Source of the DNA: a virus | Length of the DNA stretch: 64,000 nt | IMG/VR virus record: IMGVR_UViG_2917587430_000001 | Location: 25,228 to 89,227 of that record | Direction: 5' to 3' (one strand) | In this document: positions 19,397 through 55,495 of the stretch, piece after piece | How positions within the stretch are numbered: position 1 is the stretch's first letter | Layout of the letters: each line of letters starts with the position of its first letter | The notes under the pieces: model-generated | The model's input: only the letters and a program-made list of their open reading frames with translations | What the model was told of the DNA's origin: nothing | The model's database searches: none | Made by a program: the position numbers and the translations under genes

Positions 19397-19735
19397 GTCG
19401 AACTATTAATTAGACGGAACGATTCTGCCGATCCACCCAGCTTCGGAGAATAGGCAGAATAATTCTGTATATCACTCCAAAACAGGTGGATCGACAGAAT
19501 GATTCTACATAATAGACTGATTTGGGTGGATCTGCAGAATCGTTCCAAATGGAATCAATTCAGTGGAATACAGACCACGAACGTAGGCAAACCTGAAAAC
19601 CTAAGTCTGGGTAAGGGGAGGTCTGGCAGGGTTAAAGCAACTGAACCGTCATTTGCCTGCAAGAAGCACTTGAAGCTTCAGTCTCAGTGGAAAACTTTAG
19701 ATGACTCGACAACTGAAATCAAGGTACGCGCTCGC
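19397..19735 (-). repeat. attI-platform repeat, copy B, with attI-like site at 19397-19415
   Basis: Near-identical to 33225-33552; ends GTCTAAT-TAATA-GTTCGAC. Confidence 0.85.
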
Positions 19736-19739
19736 CCCC

Positions 19740-20234
19740 TCAACCAAATCCTTTTTTCTTATTCTTGCCCCTACCCTTCTTCTTAAAATCAATCGTCTCA
19801 AACGGAGCTGCTCCTAAACTCGGCTTCTGCCAGCCGTCCAGATCCCAAATCTTATAGAACGGAGTATGCTCAATGTCCAGACGTTGGCTGATGGCTTGAG
19901 TTAAAGCTTCCAGGTTCTGAAACATTAAACCTGCGATGTCACGTAGAGAATAAGCCAGATGAATGCTAGCCTCTGACCGCTCCGGCTCTGCTGACTTGGC
20001 ACGGAACCTAAACCCTTGCTCCTCAATTGAGATCATTGACCACTTAGGGAAGTTCAGTTTGAACTCTGCATGAGTGGATGAAGCCAGCCCATAAAAAGCA
20101 GCGATGCCATACTTCTTACAAATCGCATCAATCTCGGCGGCAGCTTCTTTGAGTTTGGGATCTGACTGAGGAAGATTCTCCAATGGGTCACTCATCATCA
20201 CTCCTCGAGTCTTTAACTTGGCGAACTGCATCAT
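19740..20234 (-). CDS. Hypothetical protein
   Basis: ORF; the start may be ~20198. Confidence 0.55.
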   Translation of the reverse strand: MMQFAKLKTRGVMMSDPLENLPQSDPKLKEAAAEIDAICKKYGIAAFYGLASSTHAEFKLNFPKWSMISIEEQGFRFRAKSAEPERSEASIHLAYSLRDIAGLMFQNLEALTQAISQRLDIEHTPFYKIWDLDGWQKPSLGAAPFETIDFKKKGRGKNKKKGFG

Positions 20235-20505
20235 TAAAAATTTCAGTTCCAGTTCGGGGGAAACTCATTTCTTGAAGTGGAAACCAGCCTGACCACTTTG
20301 CCTCTAAACTGGCAAGCTGTGACGGGATTGCATCAGGATGCTCGGCGAGAAACAGAATGTGCTTAGTTGCAGCCTGCCACGCGACCTGAATAGCCGGTGG
20401 TAAGTCCTCCCAGTTGGGCATCGTCTCCCCCCGATAGTTTTTGTTTCCAACGCTGTGCCCATAGGCGCGATAGGCACTAGCTGCAATGATTGAATCTTGG
20501 CTCAT
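20188..20505 (-). CDS. Hypothetical protein
   Basis: AYRAYG...MPNWEDLPPAIQVAWQAA motif seen in small phage proteins. Confidence 0.55.
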   Translation of the reverse strand: MSQDSIIAASAYRAYGHSVGNKNYRGETMPNWEDLPPAIQVAWQAATKHILFLAEHPDAIPSQLASLEAKWSGWFPLQEMSFPRTGTEIFNDAVRQVKDSRSDDE

Positions 20506-20548
20506 AGTGAGTGCGGGAATTTTATGGTGCTACTTCTTTCTAGCGCAC

Positions 20549-21163
20549 ATGAGCATTTTATTTCCCATTCATGAGACGTTTCAGCAGACTCTTCAGGGGG
20601 AAGGGTTTTGGGCTGGAACACCAGTTGATTTCATTCGGCTATCTGGCTGCCCTGTGTCATGCCACTTTTGCGATACAGGTTATGCCGATGGCGGCAAAGA
20701 TACCCCCCGAACCATGCGATCGCTCGACGAATTAATCGCTGAGCTAAAATCCCCGTTTGTGGTGATTTCTGGTGGTGAACCCTTCATCCATTCCAACCTG
20801 CCGGAGCTGGTCAAAGCCCTCGAGTTCAACGGTAAACGAGTGGCGATCGAAACCTCTGGAGCATTCTGGCAAGAGCTGCCCGAGTCAGTTTGGGTTACGG
20901 TTTCACCCAAGGAACACATCAGCCCTAAATATCCAGTTGATGAGCGCTGGTGGCGACGTGCCAACGAAATTAAGTTAGTCATTTCCAGTGGTCAGGAAGT
21001 GTGGTTCTACCGTCCCAAATTGGCTAAAACCACTTGCTCTATCTTCCTCCAGCCGGAGTGGGGCGATCGCGAGAAAACCTTGCCGCTGGTAATGGATTTG
21101 CTCCAGCGCTACACCAACTGTCGCCTCAGCCTACAACTTCACAAGTTTCTCGGAATTCAATAA
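20549..21163 (+). CDS. queE: 7-carboxy-7-deazaguanine synthase (radical SAM)
   Basis: ETFQQTLQGEG...FIRLSGCPVSCHFCDT (CxxxCxxC), ISGGEP, IETSG, TVSPK, LQPEW, SLQLHK. Confidence 0.93.
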   Translation: MSILFPIHETFQQTLQGEGFWAGTPVDFIRLSGCPVSCHFCDTGYADGGKDTPRTMRSLDELIAELKSPFVVISGGEPFIHSNLPELVKALEFNGKRVAIETSGAFWQELPESVWVTVSPKEHISPKYPVDERWWRRANEIKLVISSGQEVWFYRPKLAKTTCSIFLQPEWGDREKTLPLVMDLLQRYTNCRLSLQLHKFLGIQ

Positions 21164-21615
21164 TGAACCCCCAATTTCACTACCCAAAGCATCTACAGGG
21201 CACTGCTGCACCTTATCTGGAGGCGATCGCCTCAACCCAAGGCAGAGTACCAACCACGTTCCAATACCAGATCAGCACAGCCATTCGCCGCAAACACTGC
21301 AATCCGCCGATCTGGACTGACACTCACTTTCATAACTTCCAAATCACACTTCATCTCCAGGCAGTTCGGGGGGTGAGTGCGATGTATGGCATCGACATGA
21401 TTGAAGTTGAAATGCTGCTGAAGGCATGGGCAGAAGCATTGCCTGAAGTGGTCAATGAACACCCGCTCTGCATTGGCGGAACGACTGAGGATCTGTGCCT
21501 CTATTTTGCTCGAATCGAGCTAGACCCTCACATTCAACTGCTGCGCGTAGACGTGGCAGAAACCCCAGAACGTATTACCAGCCTTCCAATACTGCAAACG
21601 ACCTCTCTTAACTGA
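21163..21615 (+). CDS. Divergent QueD-like (T-fold) protein
   Basis: HCNP...HFHNFQIT, GIDM, TTEDL and VAETP parallel the QueD motifs HGHNY/IDF/PTxEN/ETP; translationally coupled to queE. Confidence 0.65.
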   Translation: MNPQFHYPKHLQGTAAPYLEAIASTQGRVPTTFQYQISTAIRRKHCNPPIWTDTHFHNFQITLHLQAVRGVSAMYGIDMIEVEMLLKAWAEALPEVVNEHPLCIGGTTEDLCLYFARIELDPHIQLLRVDVAETPERITSLPILQTTSLN

Positions 21616-21766
21616 GGGAACGTTACCGCAGATTTAGCATCTACTGCGAGGTTCGACAAGTGATTGAATTCAAAACCCTAACGGCAGGGGTGATTTTGGG
21701 CGCTATCTTTGCGATCGCCCATCTGCCAACTCCCGTTCCCTTCACAGTGGCAGGGAGGCTCTAGTA

Positions 21767-23567: not shown

Positions 23568-23609
23568 TATGGCTCGACATCAATGCTGAAAGTTGTGCAA
23601 AGGCAGTTA

Positions 23610-27723: not shown

Positions 27724-29589
27724 TCACTCCGACTCCCAAAGTTCAAGCTGTATATGGTCTTCTGGCAGCCTCTTCAAGGATCTCCTTTTGGGACGGTCTA
27801 CCCCGGTTTTTGCTAACTGTGAGCTGACTACAGGTGTCACCAGTTCACTTGGGTCAGAGGTTGCAAGCACCCCCATACCTCCCCTTGCCTGCGTCTTCCC
27901 ACTCGTAGCGGGGTTTCGGTCAGTTCTAGGGGCAACAGAGTCAGCAACAACGGCTGATTCCTGCAAGTCCGAAGACTTGTACCCTTTGGCTGAATCCTCA
28001 GCAGGTTCACAGACGGCAGAACCGTCAGGCGTAGGCATACGCAAGCCTTGTCGAATTGCCGGGGCAAGTCGCAAGGTTCTGTTTTGGGCGGGCTTAATTG
28101 CGCCACACGCCCCGTAGAGGACAGAGCTAAGGAAGTTGCAACCTCCTACTCCATCCCGATCGCCCAACCACCCACAGCCACCTTTACGAGGATTGCAGTA
28201 GTAGACGCGGTTGCGTGGCTTGTGCCTGCGACCGCAGTTTGGGCAAACTTGTGACGACCGTGCTTCGCTGGCTGTCTCTGTTCCTTCGCCGCCAGCTAAC
28301 AGCAACTTCTCGTCTAAATATTTTACTTGGGTTGGCATTTCCCAAAGGTTGTTTCGACCAACTTGCTTGATCCGACGCTTGCCCTTCTTCCTGGTCTTTG
28401 GCAGTGTCTTCAAGTCACCTACATAAACCTTGCCAACTTTATTTTCAACGCACCAATTAACGGCTGCACGGGTGACGCAATGGTTAGCGTAGGTCAATCT
28501 GACCCGGTAATAATCAGCCGCTTTATGCTGAGAGCGAAGCAACCGCATTTCTCTGCGGCTCCGCTTCTTTAGTCCTAAGTCCTTACGCCGTTGCCGAATA
28601 ATCCGAAACGCATATTTGATATCAGATCCCCGGCGCTTCAACCCCTGACGCTGCCGTTCGTTGTCCCGCTCCTGCAATTCTCGATAGGTTGCTTTTTCGT
28701 CAGGCGATAGGTATTGACGGATTTGACCCTTTAAAACCCGCGATCGCTTGCGGTTGATGCCTCGATAACGCCCATCGCGTTCGCGCTTGAGGGCACAGAT
28801 ATTCTTGCCGCTGATAGTCGCTGTAGTGCCATCCTTCAGAGCCAACACCATTGCTCGTTTCTGCCCAAAGTCAACGGCTGCAACTTCAATTAGTTCAGGG
28901 TTTGGTTCAACTGGTAATTTACGGGTGATGTGCAGGCAGAACCGACCACTGCGAGAGCGAGTAATCTTTACATCACCATCAATCGAAATGTTTAGAAGCT
29001 CTGGTACGCGCAGCTTCAACACGTAGGGCTTTGCGCCTAGAATCAGGCGATCGCCCGAGCGTTTCACCAATTGATTTGTAAAAAACAGAGTGTGCAGACC
29101 TTTGTACCGCCTGGGAAGTTGAGCGTTTGTATCCCCGTTCTTTCGGTGGGTGAAATAGCTAGCAATATTCGCTTCAAAGTCCTGAGTTAATACCACTTTT
29201 GACTGAGCCGGAATTCCATAGTCAGGTTTGGCATTCTTCTCGGTAGCAACGACTAACCGCTCCTTCCCTTTATCCTTTCCCTGTTTAGCGGGTTTGTTGA
29301 CTAACTGCCGAGGGTAAATACTTGATTGCTGAGTGATTAGAGTAATAATCAACTCATCTGCCCAACCTTTACGCCGAATATCAACGTAAGGATCAACCTC
29401 CCAGGCAGGCTGATCCGGATACTCTTCTCTAGCTTGTTTATAGGCACTTTGCTTGTAAGCCAAATGATCGATCAGCAGGTTGTAGATCATCGCACTCGAT
29501 CGCATCATCCCGTACAGCAGTTGCCGCTGCTGTGGTTTAGGATGAAACTCGATTTTTAACGTGCGGGTTTGATAGTGCTGGCTGGTCAT
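27724..29589 (-). CDS. tnpB: TnpB-family RNA-guided nuclease (621 aa)
   Basis: AAVDFG (RuvC-I), YVGDL, SEARSSQVCPNCG...C...CGW zinc finger, DRD (RuvC-III). Confidence 0.85.
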   Translation of the reverse strand: MTSQHYQTRTLKIEFHPKPQQRQLLYGMMRSSAMIYNLLIDHLAYKQSAYKQAREEYPDQPAWEVDPYVDIRRKGWADELIITLITQQSSIYPRQLVNKPAKQGKDKGKERLVVATEKNAKPDYGIPAQSKVVLTQDFEANIASYFTHRKNGDTNAQLPRRYKGLHTLFFTNQLVKRSGDRLILGAKPYVLKLRVPELLNISIDGDVKITRSRSGRFCLHITRKLPVEPNPELIEVAAVDFGQKRAMVLALKDGTTATISGKNICALKRERDGRYRGINRKRSRVLKGQIRQYLSPDEKATYRELQERDNERQRQGLKRRGSDIKYAFRIIRQRRKDLGLKKRSRREMRLLRSQHKAADYYRVRLTYANHCVTRAAVNWCVENKVGKVYVGDLKTLPKTRKKGKRRIKQVGRNNLWEMPTQVKYLDEKLLLAGGEGTETASEARSSQVCPNCGRRHKPRNRVYYCNPRKGGCGWLGDRDGVGGCNFLSSVLYGACGAIKPAQNRTLRLAPAIRQGLRMPTPDGSAVCEPAEDSAKGYKSSDLQESAVVADSVAPRTDRNPATSGKTQARGGMGVLATSDPSELVTPVVSSQLAKTGVDRPKRRSLKRLPEDHIQLELWESE

Positions 29590-29894: not shown

Positions 29895-30479
29895 TCAACT
29901 CCCCTTCTCCTTTACATGCCTGGAAACCAGTGCTCTCTTCACGCCTGGGTCATAGAGATACAGCCCTAATCCAAATCGACAGCAGGCACGACGAAACGCT
30001 TGAGACTCGCTGTTGGTATTGCTGCTACCAAACTGCGTTCCCTCTAGCGCCTCATCACCTGTGCTAGCGCGAGAGATTGGTCCCTCTTCACAAAGCAGCG
30101 TAATTTCATAGCCCAACACATAGCGGCTGCCCTGCGGCATGTGAATTAACTGCCCAGTCCATCCAGGGCTGATGTAATCCAAAATTAGGTTGCAATCATA
30201 CCAATGCAGGTATGGAATGTAATTCAACTTTCCTGACTTTTTATCCTTCTTCTCAAGCCAGTTAATAAACGCCCAAGGAAGCGGCTTTGACAAGTCAGCT
30301 AGAACGTCAATGAACGGGCGACGAAACCCTAAAGTTTGCCCCTGAGTAATCAACCGTCGCAGATCAGAGCGAGTTTCAGGGATGACAGGTAAAACTTTGG
30401 ACGTGGTTTGAGATGTGGTTTGCATGGCGGTTGAGATAAGGCGATCGCCCCTTGGTTGGATAGATGGGCGATCGCTCAT
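29895..30479 (-). CDS. Rad52/Rad22-family single-strand annealing protein
   Basis: YLHW...ILDYISPGW...SRASTG...NSESQAFRRACCRFGLGLYLYD. Confidence 0.85.
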   Translation of the reverse strand: MSDRPSIQPRGDRLISTAMQTTSQTTSKVLPVIPETRSDLRRLITQGQTLGFRRPFIDVLADLSKPLPWAFINWLEKKDKKSGKLNYIPYLHWYDCNLILDYISPGWTGQLIHMPQGSRYVLGYEITLLCEEGPISRASTGDEALEGTQFGSSNTNSESQAFRRACCRFGLGLYLYDPGVKRALVSRHVKEKGS

Positions 30480-33155: not shown

Positions 33156-33552
33156 GCGATTGCCCTTTACAGCAGCCACCGTTTCAAACTCGATTAGCAA
33201 CTTCAACCTTGATTCAACACAGCGATCGCACACCTTGATTTCAGTTGTCGAGTCATCTAAAGCTTTCCACTGAAACTTCAAGTGCTTTTTGCAGACAAAT
33301 GATGGTTCAGTTGCTAACCCTGCCAGACCTCCCCTTACCCAGACTTAGGTTTTCAGGTTTGCCTACTTTCGTGGTCTGCATTCCACTGAGTTGATTCTAT
33401 TTGGAACGATTCTACAGATCCACCCAAATTAGTCTATTATGCAGAATAATTCTGTCGATCCACCTGTTTTGGAGTGATATACAGAATCATTCTGCCTATT
33501 CTCCGAAACTGGGTAGATAGGTAGAATCGTTCCGTCTAATCAATAGTTAGCT
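33156..33552 (+). repeat. attI-platform repeat, copy C, with attI-like site at 33534-33552
   Basis: Ends GTCTAAT-CAATA-GTTAGCT; begins at degenerate HIP1 GCGATTGC. Confidence 0.85.
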
Positions 33553-33635: not shown

Positions 33636-34469
33636 ATGTCCAAATGGTATGAAAAGCTGGTACAGGAAACCTATCAAGCCCTTCTCGATCAAGAATCACA
33701 CATCAAGAACATAGTTGTGCAGCACGATGTCAAGTTGACTGGCAAAAGTGGTGCTTCTCACCAGATTGATGTCTATTGGGAATTCAGGATAGCCGATACC
33801 ATCTATCGGACATGTATTGAGTGCAGGAATTATACATCAAACATCAAAAAAAGTAGAGTTGTAGAATTCAAAGGTATTTTAGACGATATAGGTAACGCGA
33901 ACGGAATTATTGTAACTAGGGTCGGTTTTCAAGAAGGGGCTTTAACCTATGCCGAACATCACGGGGTTCGACTACTTCTTATTAATCCCGTGCTGCAAAG
34001 AATAGACGTGAACGTGCATATGGTTATTCCCCAGATAAGTAACATAGGATTTTTGTTCGATTCTTCTCACGCAAAGTTCGTTTTAGAAGCAGCAGGAGTT
34101 GATACCACAAGTATCTTATTGGAGTTAAACGCTTTAGCTAAAGACATTTATCTGTATGATGCCAATGGAAATAAAACACGTAATTTGTCGACAGTGTTAT
34201 CACAGCCTATAGGTAAAGTTGGTCAAATTGTTGTCGATCTTGATAATGAATATCTGGAAACATCGCATGGATTGATAAAACTCAATTCAATTAGTTTTGA
34301 GCGACAGGAAGAGATGGTCGAGAATAAAATTACAATTGGTGGTGGTGAAGATGTTGCTAAGACATTAATCCAAGATGTTCTCGAAAATACATCCAAGTAT
34401 CTTTTCAAGGATGGTGCTGTAGGCAGCGAATCTCGAAGAGACAAATTGTTGCCGCAACAGAACAGATAA
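33636..34469 (+). CDS. Gene cassette: Mrr-cat-like PD-(D/E)xK restriction endonuclease
   Basis: YEKLV...HQIDV...IECRNY...VVEF...GIIVTRVGFQEGA. Confidence 0.85.
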   Translation: MSKWYEKLVQETYQALLDQESHIKNIVVQHDVKLTGKSGASHQIDVYWEFRIADTIYRTCIECRNYTSNIKKSRVVEFKGILDDIGNANGIIVTRVGFQEGALTYAEHHGVRLLLINPVLQRIDVNVHMVIPQISNIGFLFDSSHAKFVLEAAGVDTTSILLELNALAKDIYLYDANGNKTRNLSTVLSQPIGKVGQIVVDLDNEYLETSHGLIKLNSISFERQEEMVENKITIGGGEDVAKTLIQDVLENTSKYLFKDGAVGSESRRDKLLPQQNR

Positions 34470-39818: not shown

Positions 39819-39921
39819 CCAGAGCGCAGCGCTTCACTCTGGTGGGTTCATGTGGCTAGGCACAACGTCTCGCTTGCGATCAAAGGCTTTACACCACCCT
39901 TGATGGCGATCGCCAAACTTG

Positions 39922-40677
39922 TTAAGCGGACATCCGAGCTTCAGCAGTCTCTACGGTGTCTGCCTTCTTGAAGCTAAATGCCAGGTTGTAGAGTTCAGTC
40001 CAGTTCAGTTCTCCAGCATCGTAGGCAGTCCGGATTTTGCTGGAAGCCTCATACAACTCATACGCCTTAGCAATCACTTTGGTGTAGTGAGCCGACTTGC
40101 CCACAGTTTCCCCGGCTGCTTTGGTGTCACCGTTGCAGCGGACTACTGCCTCATAAACTTCTCTGGCTTGAGCCAACTTCTCTGCCGGGTCAGTAATCCG
40201 AGGTGTTCCGGTTCGGGGGGTGCCACCTCTGCGAGTTTTGGCAGGTTGGGCAATGGCGATCGCGGTCAGCAATTGCTTGAAGGCTCCAAAATTCTCTAGC
40301 AGGTAAGTTGCTTCGGCACAGCTCCCTACATTGGCATTCTCATCCAGGTAGAGGATCAAGCGTTGTTCATAGGTCAAGTCAGACTTTTGCTCCTCAGCCT
40401 CCAGCTCCGGTTCGGGGGGTGCTACCTCTTCAACTTCGACTTCAACAGCAGCTTCAGAATCATCATCTGTAGCAATTGCCATTTGCTCAAAGTCTTCTTC
40501 ATCGTCAGATTCAACCTGATCTTCAACCTGCCCTTGAGCAAACAGAATCCAGTCAATTAACTGTGCTTTCGTGTCGCTTGGCTCAAACTCAATCTCCAGT
40601 CCAGCAGCAATGTTCTGGAGTTTGGGTTTGGTCATTTCACGGGTGGTCAGTTGGTCGCGAGTGTAGGTGGTAGTCAT
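39922..40677 (-). CDS. Hypothetical protein with N-terminal HeH/Rho-N-like domain, acidic linker and C-terminal HTH-like region
   Basis: YTRDQL...KPKLQNIA...DTKAQLIDWIL. Confidence 0.6.
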   Translation of the reverse strand: MTTTYTRDQLTTREMTKPKLQNIAAGLEIEFEPSDTKAQLIDWILFAQGQVEDQVESDDEEDFEQMAIATDDDSEAAVEVEVEEVAPPEPELEAEEQKSDLTYEQRLILYLDENANVGSCAEATYLLENFGAFKQLLTAIAIAQPAKTRRGGTPRTGTPRITDPAEKLAQAREVYEAVVRCNGDTKAAGETVGKSAHYTKVIAKAYELYEASSKIRTAYDAGELNWTELYNLAFSFKKADTVETAEARMSA

Positions 40678-40909: not shown

Positions 40910-41757
40910 CTCAGTGCCTCGTTTGCTTGTGATGCCCCTATCCTCACCAGCTTTTTTGGTAGTGTCAGCAGCAATCCAAGTGTTTTACGATTCGAGTTAC
41001 TGACAGGTTTTAAGTCACTCCATCAGCTAGGCGAATCAGAGTTTTCAGGCATCAAAAAGAGCGCTCGACAGCAGAAGTCAGGCGCTCAATATGAGGAGTA
41101 TTGAAAACCAAATTAACTGACATTCAAGAATGCCAAAGCCAATTCTCCAAGTTGGACAGGCCTTCTGATTCAGTGCCTTGGCATATCTGTTCTTAGTGAT
41201 CCGCCAGTTGTGTACTTCACTTTCCTCCAACTTCCAACTTTCTGTCGGATCGCTTTCACACCTTTCGTATCAAGGTTCTTAGGGGTTGAGAGAGCAGGGC
41301 GATCGCAATTTAAGTCGGATGAAGCCGACTTAAATTGGAAAGATGTCGGTCTTGTCGGAGAAATTCAGTTTTTTATCGCCTTTACGGGGTGCAGTTAAAC
41401 GAGACTTGTCGCCTCACTAAATGTGTAGAGAGATCAGAGGCCCTAAGTTAAACTTTGCCGTCTTTAGGGGCACTTGAAAGGGATCGGATACGGCTTGAGG
41501 ATCATCGTGGGAAAGGAAGTAGTTGAGGAATTCCCTCACATTTAACAATGATGTGGGCGATCGCCCATACTCTTCACCCCAGATATCCGCGTGTGGATTC
41601 CCCTCACTGTCATGCCAGATGCCCTGGCTCTTAAAGTACTGAATGCCAGCGTAGGGAATGCCCAGCATCAGGACAGCGGCGATCGCCCAGTTGCGCGCTG
41701 TTAAGGTTGGAAGACTGAAGTATAGATAGTGTTTGGGAACCCTATAGTATACAGGCA

Positions 41758-41842
41758 CCCCAACTCTACGTTGGAGCCGACGAACACCGTTGGCCCGACG
41801 ACGCGAATAAGCGGCATTCGCGGCTCAACTCCGCTGTTATGC
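41758..41842 (+). other. attC site
   Basis: CCCCAAC-TCTACGTTGGAGCCGAC...GCGGCTCAACTCCGCT-GTTATGC. Confidence 0.85.
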
Positions 41843-43159: not shown

Positions 43160-43651
43160 ATGTTTTTTCTGCTTCCTTTAGTTGGTGCGGCAGTTGGTGC
43201 AGCAGTTGGTGCTCTTGTTACTCATGCTAGCGGCGAGAAAGATAGACAGGCGGCAGAGCATCATAGAAAAGTTGCTAATGACTTGACCAACAAATTCTCA
43301 AATTTAGAGAAAAGATACAGCGAATATGCCGATAAGAGTAAGAGTCAAATTGATGACTTGACCAGGCAACACGCTTTAGATGAAGCAGAGAAAGATCTTC
43401 TGCGTTTAGCCATCAGGTTGCAGCAGAGCTTGTATATGCTTATGTGGGATATAGATAATAAGCCTACATATGATGCTTTGATAGATTTTGAACAAGCTGT
43501 TGAGGCAACTAACAGAGTTTTATCCGAGTTAAGCGAGGAGAAAATTCAAATCCCAAGTAAGTACTTTTCTCGCAACCTGACACGGGTTAAGAGGCGTGAA
43601 AAGCTCGCTGAAACGAGGCAGAAGAAAATAGAAAGTAGCAGCGCGGCATAG
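43160..43651 (+). CDS. Gene cassette: membrane-anchored coiled-coil partner protein
   Basis: MFFLLPLVGAAVGAAVGALV; the stop lies in attC R''. Confidence 0.7.
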   Translation: MFFLLPLVGAAVGAAVGALVTHASGEKDRQAAEHHRKVANDLTNKFSNLEKRYSEYADKSKSQIDDLTRQHALDEAEKDLLRLAIRLQQSLYMLMWDIDNKPTYDALIDFEQAVEATNRVLSELSEEKIQIPSKYFSRNLTRVKRREKLAETRQKKIESSSAA

Positions 43652-43732
43652 CAATTCGGGTGCAGCGGATTGACCGAAGCCGCTTGGGTTAGATGCAAAG
43701 ACCTCGGCAACCGCTGACCCGACTCGTTAGGT
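43646..43732 (+). other. attC site
   Basis: GCATAGC-AATTCGGGTGCAGCGGATTG...CAACCGCTGACCCGACTC-GTTAGGT. Confidence 0.85.
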
Positions 43733-43790
43733 GGAATTTGAGACATCAATTAGAACATTAAATACCTCTAAAGTTGAGGCTAGTACAAAA

Positions 43791-46743: not shown

Positions 46744-47205
46744 GTTAACATCATTGCCGAAAATGACCCTTCTCGGCATTGTTTGATTCAATGCCCATAT
46801 CAAAAGCCTCTTTCAGACATAGATTTAGGCTTTACTACTTACAGTACTCAATGGTCATTTTCGGCAGAGTTAAGCTGTTCAGACGTGGAAGGGGCAATCG
46901 CTCTATCTTCTACTGATACCTACCCATAAAAACGGGTAGCTTCCCGACTATCTCAAAGCCAAAGGAGGCGGGATGATACATCCATATCAAAGCCGCCGAC
47001 CACGCTTTACAAGGTCGGCATATAGAAAAACAAAGCCCTGACCGGTAAGGTTAGGGCTTATTGTTTTGGTCAACGTCTTAAATAGCGTGACTAGGGCAGC
47101 AGGGCGATCGCCCAACTCCTTCTCAATAAAGCCGATTGGGTCATTGGTGTCCCGTGTCACCATTGCCGCAACTCCAGCTCACCCCTAGCCCGAATTTGAT
47201 CCCCT

Positions 47206-47724
47206 TCAAGCGACAGCAAGGACATTGCGTGGGTTCTCTCCAGCGGCTAATCTCTCAAGCTGCTCATCTGAGAGATTTGAATAATCAATTTTGACGTTGA
47301 GCTTGGTTTCCTCCTTCTCACCTAGAGCAGTTTTTCCAATCTTTTGAAGTCGCTCTAGCGCCTTGGCTAACTCATCCAACTGTTTGGGAGATGGTAGATC
47401 ATTGCCTTTTGCCACTCCTTCAGTTGCTTCTTTAAGTTGCATGAAAACAAGATTCAAGCCGCCTTTCGCAAGTTCATAGCACTGGGCATCCCATGCAGCT
47501 AAGTCGCCCGCTAAAGCAGTCGATTTGTGTTCCTGGCGTTTATCTGAAACAGTTTGAACAAAACGCTCAGCCTCAACTTTCCAATGCTCTTTAGCTGCTT
47601 TTTCCCGCAGATATGAGGGCGAACAGGTATACTTCGCAGCCAATTGCTCTAAGGTTGGACGAGACTTCTCATCCGGAGCCTGGACGTATTCATCTTTGAT
47701 GACCTGCCAGTTGTGCTTCGCCAC
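47206..47724 (-). CDS. Terminase small subunit-like protein
   Basis: HNWQVIKDEYV...TLEQLAAKY...LREKAAKEHW HTH; C-terminal DYSNLSDEQLERLA. Confidence 0.65.
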   Translation of the reverse strand: MAKHNWQVIKDEYVQAPDEKSRPTLEQLAAKYTCSPSYLREKAAKEHWKVEAERFVQTVSDKRQEHKSTALAGDLAAWDAQCYELAKGGLNLVFMQLKEATEGVAKGNDLPSPKQLDELAKALERLQKIGKTALGEKEETKLNVKIDYSNLSDEQLERLAAGENPRNVLAVA

Positions 47725-48238
47725 TTTCCCTCAGCTTCCTGCAATTTCCGACTTTCTGTCGGATCGTTCCCACGCCTTGTGGGGTGGGGTTTTCACGGAC
47801 ATGGAAAAGGGTAGGGCGATCGCATTCAAGTCGGTTAAAGGCAACTGTTCTGGTAAAAATGCTGATCTTGCCAAAGATCTTTAACTTTCTGAAGTTATAA
47901 AGGGAACACCAGATCTTCATCGACCAGTGCAACAGATGGCAAAAATCTTTTCAAGGCGAACTGAGGAACAGGAAAAATTTCGTCAGGATCTATGCTTGGT
48001 TATTCAATCTGAAGAAGAGCGCAGGATTCAAGAGCAGTCTGCTGAACGTCTTGTCATGCCTATGACTTTAAGTACGTGGGAAGACGACTGGAAGAGTTGA
48101 TTTCAAGCTGCTTACCGGCAGTATAACGATTCACTCGGGTTGGATCTAAGGGTTTAACATTGCGGAAGCTAACATATCAGCTTCATTCAGAAGGAGCTGG
48201 GCGAGTAGCTGACGGAAGAACAGCGGGCGATCGCGGCG

Positions 48239-48329
48239 GTATAACATATTTCCTGTTGCGCCCGACCATTGAAAAGTTATCGGTAGATTATTCGAGGTTG
48301 TCTACAGTGGGTTAAGCGGAACGTTAGAC
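48239..48329 (+). other. attC site (degenerate)
   Basis: GTATAAC...TTGCGCCCGACCATTG...CAGTGGGTTAAGCGGAAC-GTTAGAC. Confidence 0.6.
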
Positions 48330-48433
48330 CACAAGATCTCGGTTGGAATGGTGCTGTAACCGCTCTAAGTATCAATAGGGAAACCGCTCTAAGTGCTAGC
48401 TTTGAATGGATGATTGCAATAAGGAAAAATTAG

Positions 48434-48931
48434 GTGTCAAAAGGCATCCCTGCAAAGCTTAAAAAGGTTTCAGTTAAACTCCCATTTGGTATTGGTGGAG
48501 CAGAATGGGAAGCCGACTCGACAGAACGCAAAGCGGCTTGGGCGATTTATGTTGAGTTAGTTACTCGCATCGCTGTTCAAGACCTTGATAAAGACCAAGG
48601 ACTTTTGCGAGAGTTGCTAAACTCGCTACATAGTTTGTTTGGTATTACACGTCAAATCCTGCGGGAAGCTGGTCCAGATGTTGGTGCATCATACGAATCA
48701 GTTGGGGGTACAGCAATTACTGTCCTTAACAGAGGACTACGCCCTTTTTTGTCTACATGGCATCCTGCACTTCAGGCATGGGAGGCGCAACGCCCTGTAA
48801 ATCTTAGTCCAAAAGAGCATGAGAAGAATTGGATTCATGAACCTAAATTACGTAGTGAATTAAAATCCCTTAATCTAGATTTAGAGCAATATGCTAATGC
48901 GTTAGCAGAGATAGCTGGAGTTAAGTGTTGA
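48434..48931 (+). CDS. Gene cassette: conserved-looking helical hypothetical protein
   Basis: ERKAAWAIYVELVTRIA...LNRGLRPFLSTWHP; co-cassette with SIR2-TIR. Confidence 0.7.
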   Translation: MSKGIPAKLKKVSVKLPFGIGGAEWEADSTERKAAWAIYVELVTRIAVQDLDKDQGLLRELLNSLHSLFGITRQILREAGPDVGASYESVGGTAITVLNRGLRPFLSTWHPALQAWEAQRPVNLSPKEHEKNWIHEPKLRSELKSLNLDLEQYANALAEIAGVKC

Positions 48932-49018
48932 TAGGCTAGTAGGCGCTTGACAACCTCTCAGAATAGTTAAAGATGGTATTAATCACATTATTAGAATTAG
49001 TAATTTATCTTTAGCAGA

Positions 49019-50266
49019 ATGAATGAGCTAATCATACAAAGACTAAAAAGAAAGTCACGCGGAAATCAAGTGGCAATCGCAGTCAGCAGTTCGCTGTCAG
49101 AAGAAAAATTTTCTATTCCAAGTCTAGCGAAAAAAATAATTAGCCACTGCAATTTAGAATTTGAAGTTCAGGAATTGACACAATATTTCAAAGTATGGAA
49201 CGCCCTGATTGAAGAAGCTGAGAAAAAAGTAAGTAGAGATTATTTGGTTAAATTGGTGAGAGATTTCGTATCCACCGCAGAGCCTCTTCCGGTGCATTAT
49301 AAAATTGCATCACTACCTATTTCAAACTTTATAGATGCTACTTTCGATCGATCACTGTATAAAGCTCTTATTCAATTGAATAAAAATCCAATCATTCATG
49401 ATTGGAATCATCAATCTATTGGGGCATGGAAGCAAAGTAATCCAAATCAACCCAGTATATTCTTCTTGTTCTGCAATTTAAGTCCACCTCATCCTTGGCA
49501 TGGAGTCTATGAACCCATCAGTAGAGCTGGCAGTAGGGGTGATCAAATTCAGATAATGAATATTGCAGAGATGCTCAATGATAAAGACTTGATTCTCGCA
49601 GGATTTACCTCTCACGAGGCAGAATTTACCCTACACTTATCTTCATTAATCAGTTCTTGCAATAAAGTAGTTAATTGTCTTGATTATATTGATGATTCTA
49701 CTTACTGGTGTCAAAGAGGGGTTTGCATCCTTAATAAGGAAGCTGAGCAAGTAATCGATTACTTACTTCCCTATGAGATGGGTGAGTACACGTTTTGGGA
49801 TATGCCTATACCGAGGAGAGAAATAATGGATGTAGTGCGAGACAAGCAGTATGACTGCTTTATCAGTCATTTCAGTGGCGATAAACCTTTTGCAAAGAGA
49901 TTATCTCAAGATCTTGAGATGCGTGGTCTTTATGTCTGGGTTGACGAGAACGAAATTGATATTGGGGATTCTCTTTCAGATAAAATTCAAGATGGTTTAG
50001 GAAGCTCATATTCGTTTGCAATTATCCTATCCAATGAATCCATTTCTAGACCTTGGGTCAAGGAAGAATTAAGAGCAGCATATGCTTTAAGATTAGCGGG
50101 AGAATCTAAGATACTGCCAATTTTGTACAAGGAATGTGATATTCCTATACTTCTGAAAGACTACAGATATGCAGATTTTAGAAGTGAAGGTCGGTATCAT
50201 GAGGAGATTCCTACTTTGGAACGCTCTATTAGAAATGCTATGCGCCAAGCGAGGGGCAAGAAATAG
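49019..50266 (+). CDS. Gene cassette: SIR2-like + TIR domain protein
   Basis: LPISNFIDATFDRSLYKAL (SIR2-like); YDCFISH..DK..A.RL..DL..RGL.VW.D...WVKEEL (TIR with catalytic Glu). Confidence 0.8.
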   Translation: MNELIIQRLKRKSRGNQVAIAVSSSLSEEKFSIPSLAKKIISHCNLEFEVQELTQYFKVWNALIEEAEKKVSRDYLVKLVRDFVSTAEPLPVHYKIASLPISNFIDATFDRSLYKALIQLNKNPIIHDWNHQSIGAWKQSNPNQPSIFFLFCNLSPPHPWHGVYEPISRAGSRGDQIQIMNIAEMLNDKDLILAGFTSHEAEFTLHLSSLISSCNKVVNCLDYIDDSTYWCQRGVCILNKEAEQVIDYLLPYEMGEYTFWDMPIPRREIMDVVRDKQYDCFISHFSGDKPFAKRLSQDLEMRGLYVWVDENEIDIGDSLSDKIQDGLGSSYSFAIILSNESISRPWVKEELRAAYALRLAGESKILPILYKECDIPILLKDYRYADFRSEGRYHEEIPTLERSIRNAMRQARGKK

Positions 50267-50300
50267 TTGACGCAGTTCTATAGTTTCATAAGCTCAGGCG

Positions 50301-50386
50301 TTCTAACAATTTAAATGCAGGCGGACGTTGAAAGCCACTCTGCTTAGTTCGAGGTTACTTGCCGTCACTGATTCAAACCGTTAGCC
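50301..50386 (+). other. attC site
   Basis: TTCTAAC-AATTTAAATGCAGGCGGACG...CCGTCACTGATTCAAACC-GTTAGCC. Confidence 0.8.
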
Positions 50387-50599
50387 TGTTTTGTTCCGCA
50401 TTGAAGGCAGTATTTATTAGCTAGCAAACGTAAACCGCGTCGAAGCCAGCAGGCGGGCGATCGCTACTTCCTAGTTTGGATTCTTTGATTCGTTTAATTG
50501 TCTAACCGTTGCTTTCAGGGAGAGTTTGCCGATTATAGCTTCGCGCCATTCTTTAATATTGCTTTGAATGAAGAGCAGGAAACACAGATCAAATGTCTT

Positions 50600-50682
50600 C
50601 TAGAACAGCAGAAGCCATCTGCGATGATAACCTTCATCCTCCCACGGCAAGCTTCCATCTGTCCGCTGCATTAAAGTTAGAC
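50600..50682 (-). other. attC site (right arm degenerate)
   Basis: Clear left arm GTCTAAC-TTTAATGCAGCGGAC; probable core GTTCTAG. Confidence 0.5.
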
Positions 50683-50755
50683 TGCCCAACGTGGCATCAG
50701 GCTTCATTAGGTAAAATTGGATGGGGAATCCTAAATGCTCCCTAAGATGAACACT

Positions 50756-50893
50756 CTACAAGCTATTCAGTTTTGTGATTGGCTGGGACTCGTTTGCGAA
50801 GAGCAAGTAACAAATGGCTAGTGTTACACCTAGTACAGCTAATGTTCTACGGATTTTTAGAACGAGGTTGATTTCATCTATGATTTTTTTCAT
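50756..50893 (-). CDS. 45-aa single-TM peptide in a gene cassette
   Basis: Strong RBS AAGGAGGT; MKKIIDEINLVLKIRRTLAVLGVTLAICYLLFANESQPITKLNSL. Confidence 0.55.
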   Translation of the reverse strand: MKKIIDEINLVLKIRRTLAVLGVTLAICYLLFANESQPITKLNSL

Positions 50894-51243
50894 AGTTTTT
50901 TACCTCCTTCGCCCCCATCTGCAGGAGGCAAGCTCTTCGATCTTTTCCGTAGCTTGATCACCACGTACACGATCGGGGTAGCCATTTGCGCCATACCGTT
51001 AGCCTTCGCAACGAAGTCCCTCCCCTCGGAGAGGCTTTTGGCAATCAGAAGCAAGAACTTGGTTCATGATTGCCTTGATTTACAAAATATCACAATCAAA
51101 GAATTGGTCTGAGGTAGGACATCAAGGATCTATTGGTGTGATAACCGAACATTCTCAAAGTCCTCTTCTCATGCTGTTTATGCCAATAAGTCTTGTACCT
51201 TCAGTAGTCAGCCTTTAAGCTACTACCCCAGAGATACCCAGCA

Positions 51244-51328
51244 ATCTAACGTTCGCAATCACCGGACACAGATCACTTTTACTAAAAACAGCATACTTCA
51301 AAGTTTCGATGCATTGTGATTGTTGGGT
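51244..51328 (-). other. attC site
   Basis: ACCCAAC-AATCACAATGCATCGAAAC...GTCCGGTGATTGCGAAC-GTTAGAT. Confidence 0.8.
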
Positions 51329-51345
51329 GGCGGAACACTGTTGTC

Positions 51346-52197
51346 CTATCCGTTCGCCTCTTTTTCAGCGTCTATTTCAAGACGTATGCCCTTGCCAGGG
51401 ATAAATATCAATTTACCGATTGTCTTCCGAGGCGCTCTCCGCTCAAGCTCAGATTTCATCTCGATTTCCAGTTCGCTGACGTGTTCCAACATATGAACGA
51501 GATCTGTTCCAATCTCATACGCGTCGCGATGAAGCTCGGCCCGCGATTCAATAGCCGTCCGGATTTGCAGATCTGGCATACCGGAATGCGCAGCCTTACT
51601 GTTTCGGCGTCTCCCCGCAATTCGCAAGTGATCCTTCAGACAGTGTTCGTATTTGAGGCAATGCCCGTATCTGTGAGCAAGCGAACCCAAAATCGATATC
51701 TTGTGCGCTGGCTTTTTCTCCCGTCGGCACTCTTTACAATCTGTAGCAAGCAACGCACCAAGGCTTGCTTTGAAGTAGTAGTGTTTCGGAATATTTGTAC
51801 AAAAGGCTAGTTGCTTGATGAGCGCTTCACATAACCTCGTGACATAAAGAACTAGCTCATTGTAGATCCGTATCCGTTGAATCTCGGCATCGAGAGCATT
51901 CATGGGCTCTTGGCTCGTTGAGATGGAATGCGAGTCATTAATTACATGACTCATGACTCCGGCGAGAGCCGACGCTTCATAGGTGTGCAGGTTCGTGAAC
52001 GCACCTTCAGCGGTGCGATTTGAGAAAACTTCAAAGGTGCCTTCTTGCTTTAGCCACTTCCGAAATTCAGTTGCAATTGGATAGAAGTTAATGCCGATAA
52101 CGTCGGCGCTGTTCCAAATATAAGCTTCCTTGCGAAACTCCCATTCAAAATGAAATGCCATATCCAGCTGGTCATGATCTGCGTGCTCAATGCCCAA
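51346..52197 (-). CDS. Gene cassette: HEPN-like hypothetical protein with CxxC
   Basis: TTG start after TAAGGAGG; RRNSKAAH and DCKEC. Confidence 0.55.
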   Translation of the reverse strand: MGIEHADHDQLDMAFHFEWEFRKEAYIWNSADVIGINFYPIATEFRKWLKQEGTFEVFSNRTAEGAFTNLHTYEASALAGVMSHVINDSHSISTSQEPMNALDAEIQRIRIYNELVLYVTRLCEALIKQLAFCTNIPKHYYFKASLGALLATDCKECRREKKPAHKISILGSLAHRYGHCLKYEHCLKDHLRIAGRRRNSKAAHSGMPDLQIRTAIESRAELHRDAYEIGTDLVHMLEHVSELEIEMKSELERRAPRKTIGKLIFIPGKGIRLEIDAEKEANG

Positions 52198-52230
52198 GAT
52201 ATCGATCCTCCTTAACAGCGCGTCTTTCCA

Positions 52231-52315
52231 CCCGAAGGTTTGCTTGAGCGGTTGCAAACGACCTTCACCATAAACCAAGCTTTTTCGGCAATCCGCTCCA
52301 GGGGAATTGTTAGCC
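52231..52315 (-). other. attC site (core mutated to CTT)
   Basis: GGCTAAC-AATTCCCCTGGAGCGGATTGC...GCAACCGCTCAAGCAAAC-CTTCGGG. Confidence 0.75.
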
Positions 52316-52380
52316 TGCTGGCAGAGTGAGTTTAGCCAATTCTCAAAACATTTAAAGATTTTACTTTTGCTAGGTTAGAA

Positions 52381-53895
52381 CTAAGAAAATGCTGGCTTTC
52401 CATCACCTTCAGGACCACCTAATGGACAATCAATATCTCTAATTGGATAACCGTAAGTAGAGTAATCGATATAATGATCATTGGCTTCAGTTATTTTTAA
52501 CAATAACCTGTTGAATAAAGAATATAAAGCACCTGAAGTCATCGACAGCCTATGACAGTCCAGAGGCTTATAGCGATGACCATGAGCAGATTTATTACGC
52601 TCTTTTAGTGCTTGTAATTCAACTCGTCCAACTTGAAGAGAGAGAAGATCAAAGAATTTTTCATACTGCATATTAGAGCTTTTTTTGTTTAAATCCTCTA
52701 GTTTTCTCTTTAAAATGTCCAAGTTCTTACTTTCAATAGATTCTTTGTCTAGAGAAGATGTAACTTCATCGAAAGTATCCATTAGTGGCTTTCTAATTTT
52801 TGTCTTCCAAACACTTTTAGGAATTAGTAAAGGCGATAACTCGTTCTCGTTAGCACAGTAGGAATCCCGCAGAGACTCTATCGCAGCACCAAAATGAACA
52901 GCTTGTACATCCAGGGGAGAGGTTAAACCTAGCCATATGAGAAAAAGTGGATATTCAATATTAATAGTTTCCATTTTAGTAGCGACGGAACTTATCATTC
53001 TAGATATTCTTTTCTCATCTAGGTACCATTCTTCTGTAGAGATTCCAAGTGAAACAGGTGGTTTACATGGGTATTTGTAAGCTCTTTCACCTAGTATATA
53101 AATTTCCCTAACAACACACCCAATGCGACCACCATCTTTACTTAGAGATGTTGAACCAACCGAAACTAACTGCCTACCAAGGGTAAAGGATAAGGCAGCT
53201 AAAATAGTTTGTTTTGTATCTTCTGAGGGCAATCTATTTTCGTTTAGGTCTTCAAACTCTACAAAACCTGGTTTATATTTTTGTGGAGCAATATCATCCA
53301 TGGTATGTCCAACTGTAAGTGACCATTTTTGATCACTCATAGTACATTCACATTTGAAATGATCTAGAGAACTATCGAAATTTTTATTAAGATCAAGTTC
53401 AAGTACACCTCCACCACTGCGCTCTCTCTTGAAGGAAGCTGAATGTTCTCTAGTTGTACACCTACTGAAAATGTATCTGTCAGCAGAAAAGTTAACAATC
53501 CACTCAACTTGGGCGACAGCTGGTAACTCACTTTGAAAAATTTCAGCTTCATTAACTTTCGCATGAATGAACAAGGGATCTGTCTCTTCTACTTGTAAAC
53601 TCTTACTCTTATTACTTGTAGAAGTTATTAGTACTCCTCTCAATCGAACTAAAACACCAGTCATAGTTTGTCCGATGGTTTCTTCTGCATAGGAGGGAGC
53701 TTCACCCGGTCGTAAATTTATGTGTTCTTCAAGCGAAAACGAACCCATGCCTTTACCAACCGCTGTCAACCGCAAATCTGCATCTCTTGAAAGGTCTATT
53801 TCAGTAATTTTTTCAGGAAAAGCTCCCCGCTGGATAACCCTGAAGCTTAAGGGAGTAGTTACAGTTTGCCATTCCAGCCAGTCTAAGTTTTCCAT
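52381..53895 (-). CDS. Gene cassette: ApeA-like C-terminal HEPN protein
   Basis: FGAAIESLR...RNKSAHG (RxxxxH) after a beta-rich N-terminus. Confidence 0.65.
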   Translation of the reverse strand: MENLDWLEWQTVTTPLSFRVIQRGAFPEKITEIDLSRDADLRLTAVGKGMGSFSLEEHINLRPGEAPSYAEETIGQTMTGVLVRLRGVLITSTSNKSKSLQVEETDPLFIHAKVNEAEIFQSELPAVAQVEWIVNFSADRYIFSRCTTREHSASFKRERSGGGVLELDLNKNFDSSLDHFKCECTMSDQKWSLTVGHTMDDIAPQKYKPGFVEFEDLNENRLPSEDTKQTILAALSFTLGRQLVSVGSTSLSKDGGRIGCVVREIYILGERAYKYPCKPPVSLGISTEEWYLDEKRISRMISSVATKMETINIEYPLFLIWLGLTSPLDVQAVHFGAAIESLRDSYCANENELSPLLIPKSVWKTKIRKPLMDTFDEVTSSLDKESIESKNLDILKRKLEDLNKKSSNMQYEKFFDLLSLQVGRVELQALKERNKSAHGHRYKPLDCHRLSMTSGALYSLFNRLLLKITEANDHYIDYSTYGYPIRDIDCPLGGPEGDGKPAFS

Positions 53896-53963
53896 TGTAT
53901 TGAAGTTGAACTACACTACTCACCAATAATAATTGGGAGTACTTTTACAAAGGGGTGAAAGCA

Positions 53964-54036
53964 GTCTAACGACTAAGATAAGTGACAATAGATATACTAA
54001 GATTTCTCAATTATTCGTTCCATCAGCTTGTTAGCT
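53964..54036 (-). other. attC site (degenerate)
   Basis: AGCTAAC-AAGCTGATGGAACG...CACTTATCTTAGTC-GTTAGAC. Confidence 0.6.
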
Positions 54037-54053
54037 GGCTGGGCAACACCAAA

Positions 54054-54974
54054 TCACTGATCATCAATCAAATCGCTACACAATTCACAAAACAAATCGA
54101 CATCATCTACTGAATTTATCCAACTAGGATATCTAGAATCATCAATCTCTTTTTCCCACTCGTGCAGAAAAGAAATGTATGGTTGTTCGCATTTAATACA
54201 ATAGTTAATTGCGTATTCTGCCAAACAGTTAAAGCAATGAGCAACCCTAAGATATTTTGCAGTTGGGTCAGGAACAGCAACTGCTTCTTCGTCACAAATT
54301 CCACACGTAAAGTATTGATAATCAATCCATTTTTCTTTTGGGTCTGAAATTGGTATTCCTTCTTTCTCCATGTGTTGGATATAGAACAAATAAGACATAG
54401 ACAGAGTTCGATAAGTACTTTGACTTTCAAGAGCATCAATCTCTCCTCCATCTTCAAAAAGCTCTTCTTTACGGGCTTCGTCAAGTTTATCTAGTTCAGT
54501 TTTAAGGCTCAAGCCTAATTCCTCAGCCACAAACGTATCTAGAAAAATAAAAGCAGTACCTAAAAATTCTTTAACTTCATTTGATTTGAGAGCAGCTTCT
54601 CTATGTTCAATGCAGTTTCTAGCTTTTCGCAAAGCATTTAGTGCCCCACCCAGCTTGTATTTTCCTGATTCTTGACGCTCCGCATACTGAAATAGTGGCA
54701 GCTTGACTTCTCTGACTAAAAGATCGATCGCTTCATCAGAGCCTACTGTACTACCACTTTTTCGGTTTCGATAGATCAATGACTCATCATGTTTAGCCAA
54801 CCTCGCTTTTAGAAAAAGTTCAACAGCGTGAAAAACATGCAGAATCACATATTTCCAATCCGTATTTCTTCTACCGTGAAGATGGTGCTCTACACCATGT
54901 ACAAGAGAATCCATTGCGTTCTCTTCAAGCTTTACGATTAATCTCTGCTGGCTTGAGGTCGTTTCGTTGGTCAT
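54054..54974 (-). CDS. Gene cassette: HEPN-like N-terminus plus zinc ribbons
   Basis: YVILHVFHAVELFLKARL...RNCIEH; C-terminal CxxC pairs. Confidence 0.65.
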   Translation of the reverse strand: MTNETTSSQQRLIVKLEENAMDSLVHGVEHHLHGRRNTDWKYVILHVFHAVELFLKARLAKHDESLIYRNRKSGSTVGSDEAIDLLVREVKLPLFQYAERQESGKYKLGGALNALRKARNCIEHREAALKSNEVKEFLGTAFIFLDTFVAEELGLSLKTELDKLDEARKEELFEDGGEIDALESQSTYRTLSMSYLFYIQHMEKEGIPISDPKEKWIDYQYFTCGICDEEAVAVPDPTAKYLRVAHCFNCLAEYAINYCIKCEQPYISFLHEWEKEIDDSRYPSWINSVDDVDLFCELCSDLIDDQ

Positions 54975-55085
54975 TTCTACTGTGTTACTGATTGATACGA
55001 CAAACTCGCGAGATAATACCTAGTTTTTCAATAACTAATGCAGAATAACTCTCCCAGTTCCGGTATTACCCAGCATTTATCCTTG

Positions 55086-55275
55086 ATGGCACAACATCCT
55101 TCCCCTTGCCTATTAGGTCAGGTACAGCAATCTATCCAACTCAAGCATTTCAGCTTAAAGACTGAGAAATCCTATATTGACTACATCCGCGATTTCATCC
55201 TGTTTCATTACAGCGGCACCTTGAAGGAATGAGGACAGATGGAACTCAAGCCTACTTGGAACTAGCTAGAAGGTT
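55086..55275 (+). pseudogene. intI: Integron integrase 5' remnant, frameshifted and truncated
   Basis: LLGQVQQSIQLKHFSLKTEKSYIDYIRDFILFH, then in a shifted frame RHLEGMRTDGTQAYLELA, matching the IntI N-terminal SAM-like domain. Confidence 0.8.
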
Positions 55276-55495
55276 TGAATACTTTCGAGGTTTAACATCG
55301 AGTTCATCTCATTAGGCAGTTGCTTCAACATACCAGCAGACGCAAATTGCATCAAATCCAGCAGGAGAGCGATCGCCCGTCAAAACGCTGCCTCAAAGAC
55401 CTCTAGTCTTTTGCATTCACTAACTTGAGGAAAGCCGCAGAATTCCCGTAATCCTTGGCGTGGGAACTCTCGGACGGAGTTTCTGAGCGTCTTCT

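Follow-up and report, generated by a model that had tools for sequence, protein, structure and literature searches.

Do the blocks of accessory genes in a cyanophage-like genome end at HIP1, the palindrome GCGATCGC of cyanobacteria, and does HIP1 itself take part in joining them? The question is raised by a 64,000-nucleotide stretch of DNA (the window), which comprises bases 25228-89227 of the 113,599-bp IMG/VR virus record IMGVR_UViG_2917587430_000001 (the contig, 113.6 kb); coordinates are those of the window unless marked as contig. A preliminary description of the window had proposed that the ends of its cassette blocks coincide with HIP1 sites, and that the blocks entered the phage by short-homology recombination from HIP1 to HIP1, possibly aided by a Rad52-like annealase encoded by the phage. 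The results of the current analysis indicate that three to four joints do fall exactly on HIP1, but that coincidence with HIP1 is not a general property of the block ends. On balance, we lean towards a reading in which HIP1 is a passive, very frequent microhomology at joints and not a general border of cassettes.

Abundance of HIP1 and frequency of joints at HIP1

All of the octamers cited in the preliminary description exist in the sequence. The window contains 92 copies of HIP1, where 0.6 would be expected, and the whole contig contains 147 (1.29 per kb); the word is over-represented 250-fold, and exact and one-mismatch copies together reach a density of 1.88 per kb. The backbone is rich in HIP1 (1.3-2 per kb) whereas the accessory blocks are poor in it, and the word is scarce at 41.7-47.1, 48.2-50.4 and 50.5-55.4 kb of the window. 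In the non-repeated part of the contig, HIP1 makes up 5.7% of the identical word pairs among 8-mers, 17% among 9-mers and 26% among 10-mers. Copies of the word also differ between paralogous coding repeats at contig 20406-20456 and 21132-21182, in which HIP1 has arisen via point changes (GGAGCAATTATC versus GGGGCGATCGCC, encoding G-A-I-I and G-A-I-A); as judged from the aligned coding repeats, this is a small natural case of the spread of HIP1 through substitution. An apparent HIP1 joint at contig 21182 was rejected and removed from the counts, because the HIP1 there was made by these substitutions.

The joints considered were all distinct ends of self-homology in the contig, with a main set derived from BLAST, and an event was counted as lying at HIP1 if at least one of its copies had its boundary inside an exact HIP1 or within one base of it. 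Set against chance in this way, the coincidence that had been described is borne out in part: 3 of the 32 BLAST-derived events lie exactly at HIP1, against 0.92-0.98 expected (P = 0.064-0.071). The count becomes 4 of 34, against about 1.0 expected (P = 0.014-0.019), with the inclusion of a decayed relic tail at 50392-50464, which is a biased finding as it was discovered through inspection of the flanks of HIP1 sites. Exact joints are 3-4 times as frequent as the random expectation of approximately 3% of joints. The four are the left end of platform B (a repeated intergenic element), the right end of a relic module of the integron integrase gene intI, the decayed relic tail and a 780-bp filled and empty pair. 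Approximately 90% of the joints lie away from HIP1, including the ends of homology of the tape measure genes and of the lexA genes, the right ends of the platforms and the ends of insertion sequences (IS). None of the four small indels of at least 6 nt between paralogues falls at HIP1, and all of them use other short repeats. Likewise, the insertion that follows tape measure gene 1 (contig 14467-17091), defined against an Oculatella prophage in which the homologous gene stands directly after the tape measure gene, has HIP1 at neither end.

A filled and an empty site differing by 780 bp

The first of the exact joints comprises the following features.

39126-39135: left 10-bp repeat of the filled site, GAGATCGCCA (HIP1 with one mismatch)
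39136-39915: 780-bp segment, ending in GCGATCGCCA (39906-39915) and spanning the N-terminal two thirds of open reading frame (ORF) 38721-39818, minus strand

The segment is found only in the window copy and is missing from an inverted paralogue at contig 97838-98479; the flanks of the segment, 38698-39135 (83%) and 39908-40092 (95%), are homologous to that one contiguous inverted stretch. In the global alignment, blocks 0-68 and 68-141 of contig 97950-98090 (reverse complement) correspond to 39060-39127 and 39908-39980, i.e. blocks 0-68 and 848-921 of the window side are set against 0-141 of the empty copy. The preliminary description had suggested looking for a single HIP1 at the junction of an empty site, and for this one paralogous pair the suggestion holds: the filled allele has two HIP1 words in direct register and the empty allele a single GAGATCGCCA (contig 98015-98022) between colinear flanks, the arrangement known from the work of Gupta et al. 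(1993). The imperfect HIP1 GAGATCGC is confined in the contig to the indel site, in its two homologous copies. The window copy retains an intact 365-aa ORF while the paralogous copy holds only gene fragments, and therefore a deletion between two HIP1-type words is the simpler reading; this clean case looks like a deletion in the decayed copy.

The platform copies

The platform is a repeated intergenic element of approximately 300-490 bp, the four copies of which (A-D) flank variable accessory genes. The HIP1 positions within it are as follows.

19728-19735: degenerate HIP1 GCGCTCGC, truncated end of platform B, 4 nt from the stop codon of ORF 19740-20234 (minus strand)
33156-33163: degenerate HIP1 GCGATTGC, close to the left end of platform C, where the joint cannot be placed unambiguously
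33222-33229: intact HIP1 of platform C, the counterpart by homology of the platform B joint
35365-35372: second HIP1 in platform D, homologous to 33156 (C) and 17192 (A)
35421-35428: intact HIP1 of platform D, likewise the counterpart by homology of the platform B joint

Both the alignment and the boundary view place the start of homology in platform B exactly at the column where C, D and A have GCGATCGC, with unrelated DNA beyond, which confirms that this copy is truncated at HIP1. Its octamer, GCGCTCGC, has a single occurrence in the contig, at the platform position of the second HIP1. For platform C, a similar truncation had been claimed at 33156. The octamer GCGATTGC, also found once in the contig and at the platform position of the first HIP1, does lie within the homology to A and D, but this homology runs on for a further 5 to approximately 19 bp, and platform C may end at a core-like GTTTGTG word instead of at HIP1.

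The remaining platform ends fall on other sequences. The right ends of platforms B, C and D share a common non-HIP1 sequence, and platform A departs from them at a GAAG word. The left edges of A and D, as defined by the self-homology search, lie at a CGTTGTG word, with a weaker similarity to a group II intron remnant extending beyond it; these left ends adjoin the 5' end of a group II intron, and a 60-nt remnant of this 5' end (17324-17382) lies next to A. The ORF-less group II intron at 34467-35250 (minus strand) is 82% identical to four places on plasmid pA of Kovacikia minuta CCNUW1, and the homology to this plasmid extends it to 35250, exactly where platform D starts. A part of the platform of 90-100 nt (19553-19650, 33305-33397 and 35499-35590) has 75-79% identity to a sequence of Acaryochloris marina S15 and to a Fischerella plasmid, and in A. 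marina S15 a maturase gene of a group II intron follows approximately 370-470 bp downstream of the match. This portion of the platform may be derived from the 5' region of an intron; Rfam identified no intron domain in it.

The intI relic module and the block at 50.5-55.4 kb

The remaining exact joints lie on either side of a block of accessory genes.

50392-50464, plus strand: tail, now decayed, of an earlier copy of the intI relic, with HIP1 (50457-50464) as its last bases; borders the block 50465-55376 on the left
50465-55037, minus strand: HIP1-free block lying between the two relic tails, with accessory genes (51346-52278, 52381-53895, 54054-54974 and small ORFs)
55038-55376, plus strand: second copy of the N-terminal intI relic, together with the region upstream of it; the last bases are HIP1 (55369-55376)
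55377-55461: 85-bp spacer between this HIP1 and the onset of tape measure homology (55462); a second breakpoint, not at HIP1

The relic module is present five times. Three full copies (contig 15961-16206, window 55038-55376 and contig 92891-93233) all end in the same HIP1, a right end which they share with the decayed tail; the remaining one, a left-part copy (contig 106792-106952), is interrupted by an IS end at ...AAGCATTTC. The profile matches are confined to the N-terminal region, approximately 50 model positions (TIGR02249 2-51, PF13495 1-50). In the first and third copies, homology carries on past HIP1 into a LexA box and the lexA gene, and in the window copy it ceases within 1-2 bases of HIP1. 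The tail at 50392-50464 matches the relic over 42 nt at 79% identity (score 24 versus a null maximum of 14), or over approximately 73 nt when gaps are allowed; in gapped alignment to all three relic copies the similarity stops at the right edge of HIP1, and the DNA after it is unrelated. The case for HIP1 at 50457 and 55369 as joints is strengthened, as each forms the last 8 bases of homologous intI relic tails. One and the same relic-end HIP1 is joined on its right to three unrelated partners, i.e. lexA in two cases, the spacer that precedes tape measure gene 2, and the block from 50465 onwards. The 4.9-kb block 50465-55376 is bracketed by direct copies of the relic tail with its HIP1, and over the 7 kb from 48235 to 55368 HIP1 occurs just once, at the end of the relic tail. 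The similarity to integrase coding sequence fades approximately 18 nt ahead of HIP1, and therefore what ends at HIP1 is the repeated unit, and a cut in intI at this point is not demonstrable.

The layout of minus-strand accessory genes, an intI N-terminal relic on the plus strand and HIP1 recurs at contig 14467-17091, contig 88663-93939 and window 50465-55376. Two of these three units, which stand directly after a tape measure stop codon, then continue into a bona fide lexA gene with the LexA-box-like word TAGTACAAACGTYCTAAC. In the intact IntI of Leptolyngbya sp. FACHB-8 (440 bits), HIP1 is absent from the position of the relic end; this integrase is too diverged to be the donor, which makes the comparison uninformative.

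Weighing the explanations

Under the reading that we favour, about one joint in ten would land on an 8-10 bp GCGATCGC/GGCGATCGCC word because no other exact short repeat is as common in this DNA. Segments would be deleted, duplicated or joined when two HIP1 words recombine through slippage, single-strand annealing or another form of illegitimate joining, and one HIP1 would be left at the joint. Joining at 8-10 bp would be expected to put 6-26% of joints on HIP1; the observed share of 9-12% therefore favours passive microhomology, and the use of other short repeats by all four small indels is as this reading predicts. The published smtB deletion between HIP1 words and the low-frequency excision at HIP1 are in keeping with it. 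We infer the mechanism, the enzymes and the direction in which each event ran. The earlier statement that the blocks entered the phage goes further than the events allow, as entry and deletion cannot be told apart from them, and the annealase invoked for the process corresponds to the following gene.

29895-30479, minus strand: candidate single-strand annealing protein; sub-threshold matches only

This ORF reaches 18.8 bits with Pfam Mgm101p (cut-off 27) and has a weak PHROG match to Erf-like proteins (E 5.6e-4); it has no NCBIfam family, and its two PDB matches are weak and unrelated (E 0.086 and 0.66). The gene stays a candidate for the Rad52-like annealase.

Several observations weigh against passive microhomology. 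The enrichment of joints at HIP1 is not robust once the relic tail is excluded, and the two joints at relic tails may depend on one another. Three continuations after the same HIP1 exceed what a random pick among 147 sites would give. The large blocks are without a true ancestral empty site, because no close relative was found. Close relatives that would provide such sites were absent from GenBank phages, PLSDB plasmids, IMG/VR, GTDB genomes and JGI metagenomes; the sole DNA match in IMG/VR, L018, was dismissed as a chance 18-23-mer. The relatives at the protein level (37-48% identity for the tape measure protein, 55-67% for homologues of ORF 19740-20234) are too distant for joints to be placed at base level, and none of them has HIP1 directly past the homologous stop codon, an uninformative result at such a distance.

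An unlikely explanation, but the one that survives best next to passive microhomology, is chance combined with the picking of sites, in that the first HIP1 on either side of a HIP1-poor block will look like an edge. The preliminary description admitted sites with one mismatch and distances of up to 140 bp, and three of its seven coincidences either lie within chance or depend on an unsupported attC.

41679-41686: HIP1 inside ORF 41417-41758 (minus strand), 71 bp from the point named as a block end; unsupported as a joint
46894-46901: one-mismatch HIP1 GCAATCGC in non-coding DNA; unsupported as a joint
48227-48234: HIP1 4 bp before a proposed attC at 48239; unsupported as a joint

At the local density, a HIP1 as near to the block end as that at 41679 has a probability of approximately 12-19%. 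The word at 46894, described as following the last cassette, lies approximately 140 bp from the last attC-like site, which would happen in about 40% of cases by chance, and GCAATCGC occurs 7 times in the contig. At 48227 a HIP1 does exist, but the adjoining 48236-48332, taken for the attC of a cassette end, has no attC-like fold (z +1.05). The P value of about 0.065 in the unbiased joint test and the apparent joint at contig 21182 that was the product of substitutions point in the same direction. Against chance stand the uniqueness in the contig of GCGCTCGC and GCGATTGC, both at platform positions of HIP1, and the restriction of GAGATCGC to the two copies of the indel site; the relic tail that precedes the sole HIP1 between 48235 and 55368; and the 780-bp indel with its textbook direct repeats.

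The attC folds are supported at 17878-17964 and 43648-43733 (z -4.2) and unsupported at 48236-48332, 50292-50382 and 52286-52384. The strict attC scan recovered one site only in the cassette regions, and block ends defined by attC are soft. Two further candidates for joints in this region were rejected. The 29-nt inverted repeat 47108-47136/48170-48198, considered as a joint within HIP1, is explained by paralogy at the coding level (C-terminal peptides FIEKELGD and FIQKELGE), and the supposed extended direct repeat 41679/47104, bordering the block at 41.7-47.1 kb, has an ungapped flank similarity of 6/16, which is ordinary among pairs of HIP1. A counterpart of the attC-like element at 18601-18683 lies on Kovacikia minuta plasmid pA (approximately 92% identity, 95% over 74 nt), and the 22-nt core of the element is also present in Leptolyngbya sp. 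FACHB-8, the genome of which has an intact integron integrase (440 bits); these matches point to a Leptolyngbyaceae-like host or donor.

It is improbable, in our estimation, that a mobile or integrative unit has its terminus or attachment site at the end of the relic module, with HIP1 incidentally the last conserved word there. The repeats at 50392-50464 and approximately 55304-55376 would then be attL- and attR-like, and the block would have arrived by site-specific or Campbell-type integration via relic homology. The direct repeats of 42-73 nt around the 4.9-kb block, the common right end of three full copies and a tail fragment, and the tyrosine recombinase encoded at 15892-16917 are consistent with such an event. 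This recombinase is XerC/D-like and scores 22.9 bits with the integron model. However, two relic copies run past HIP1 into homologous lexA genes, and therefore HIP1 is not the end of an element there; the repeats are just 79% identical; and the contig has no intact integron integrase, as the relics reach only 20-31 bits with TIGR02249 (cut-off 265), some of the copies having stop codons.

Still less probable is an active process specific for HIP1, whether cutting by a CGATCG- or GCGATCGC-specific endonuclease followed by rejoining, or excision of a circle and its reinsertion. The reuse of one HIP1 with three continuations would suit such a process, as would the HIP1 or HIP1-like words on either side of the 4.9-kb block 50465-55376 and of the 780-bp segment, and site-specific-like recombination at HIP1 in Synechococcus PCC 7002, as well as the insertion of an SDR5 repeat inside HIP1, have been published (Elhai 2015, PMC4390886). 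On the other side, approximately 90% of the joints lie elsewhere, the rate of joints at HIP1 matches the prediction for passive microhomology, one of the repeats at the indel is an imperfect HIP1, and no HIP1-specific nuclease or recombinase was identified in the contig. We rate just as low the idea that HIP1 is a generic attachment site, at which HIP1-bounded segments excise and reinsert at another HIP1, possibly depending on methylation or on a nuclease. Assembly chimeras are an unlikely cause of the HIP1 joints, as assemblers would join at shared words longer than 8-10 bp.

The record as a mosaic of phage sequences

The contig has a phage-like gene content (major tail protein, tape measure proteins of 2653 and 2645 aa, large terminase subunit) and also encodes a sigma factor, a XerC/D-like integrase, a TnpB-type transposase, a group II intron and two bona fide LexA repressors (TIGR00498, 171 bits). 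Comparison of the contig with itself shows that many segments recur in direct or inverted order. Tape measure genes 1 (contig 6505-14466) and 2 (window 55496-63433) have 78-85% nucleotide identity over 8 kb, and the downstream tail genes are absent altogether at gene 2. In distant relatives, i.e. the Oculatella prophage and a Logan contig, the tape measure gene belongs to a colinear tail operon with a 160-aa gene directly after it; in the contig, a homologue of the latter (31% identity, E 4e-24) sits 2.6 kb past tape measure gene 1. The treatment of the phage as a single genome is doubtful in view of the two diverged 8-kb tape measure genes and the remnants of a second phage. We read the record as one tailed temperate cyanophage together with remnants of a related one, a mosaic probably rearranged many times; it may hold a phage and the remnant of a related phage, or else may not be a single molecule.

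An 83-bp inverted repeat (87%) links contig 6447-6529, in the start region of tape measure gene 1, with contig 16916-16998, just after lexA copy 1, and could be the trace of an inversion. A repeat of 130-155 bp, found at window 27983-28112, contig 2788-2940 and contig 106928-107082, looks like the end of an IS200/605-type element; its window copy lies within the 3' part of the TnpB-like ORF 27724-29589 (minus strand), and its copy at contig 106952 is the one that breaks off the left-part intI relic. The gene just upstream of the large terminase has three paralogues (window 47215-47829, minus strand; contig 96364-96978, minus strand; window 41137-41378). Beside the paralogue at 47.2-47.8 kb, the terminase is reduced to its first ~13 codons, in a HIP1-rich island amid HIP1-poor blocks.

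Significance and comparison with known systems

After 30 years the function of HIP1 is still open, and natural joints at HIP1 are few; to these the contig adds a clean filled and empty pair and a reused HIP1. It also provides a baseline, as the share of HIP1 among short exact repeats (6-26%) suffices for the observed share of joints, and therefore claims of a special role in recombination must exceed that baseline. If an active process were at work, it would explain the movement of accessory genes in HIP1-rich cyanobacteria and their phages. If HIP1 were a generic attachment site, cyanophages and their hosts would swap accessory blocks, relic integron modules included, without a dedicated integrase. 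Deletion and recombination joints at HIP1 have been on record since 1993; what is new in this contig is its phage-like and relic-integron setting, the one HIP1 with three partners and the numerical baseline.

The promoter-early stem-loops of T4-like phages are repeated regulatory cassettes that shuffle genes. The platform resembles them in being a repeated intergenic element that flanks variable accessory genes, but differs in that two of its copies end at or near an internal HIP1 and that part of it resembles the 5' region of a group II intron. The likeness to integron cassette arrays lies in the N-terminal intI relics, which point away from the minus-strand accessory genes, and in the few attC-like elements (17878-17964, 43648-43733). 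Unlike in integron arrays, an intact IntI is absent, several of the proposed attC sites have no fold, and none of the joints examined falls at the G/TT of an attC core, as they lie at HIP1 or at unrelated sequences; the chemistry of IntI therefore does not explain the joints studied here.

The closest parallel to the 780-bp pair is the HIP1-flanked deletion at the smtB/metallothionein locus of Synechococcus PCC 6301 (Gupta et al. 1993), which, like the low-frequency excision at HIP1 (Robinson et al. 1997), is described here as summarised in PMC13756078 and PMC4390886. In both the smtB deletion and the 780-bp pair, a segment of a few hundred bp lies between two HIP1 words in direct register and one word is left at the deleted allele. 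Unlike the smtB deletion, which was observed in the laboratory, the events described here are deduced from paralogous copies in a phage-like mosaic; one of the repeats is an imperfect HIP1 (GAGATCGC), and HIP1 is also found at the joins of modules. The joints at identities of 8-10 bp are similar to those of microhomology-mediated or homology-facilitated illegitimate recombination, replication slippage or single-strand annealing; a further likeness lies in the block 50465-55376, which is bracketed by a diverged copy of the adjoining DNA with the microhomology at its end. What sets this DNA apart from generic microhomology joining is that a single word, over-represented 250-fold, dominates the pool of microhomologies available to it.

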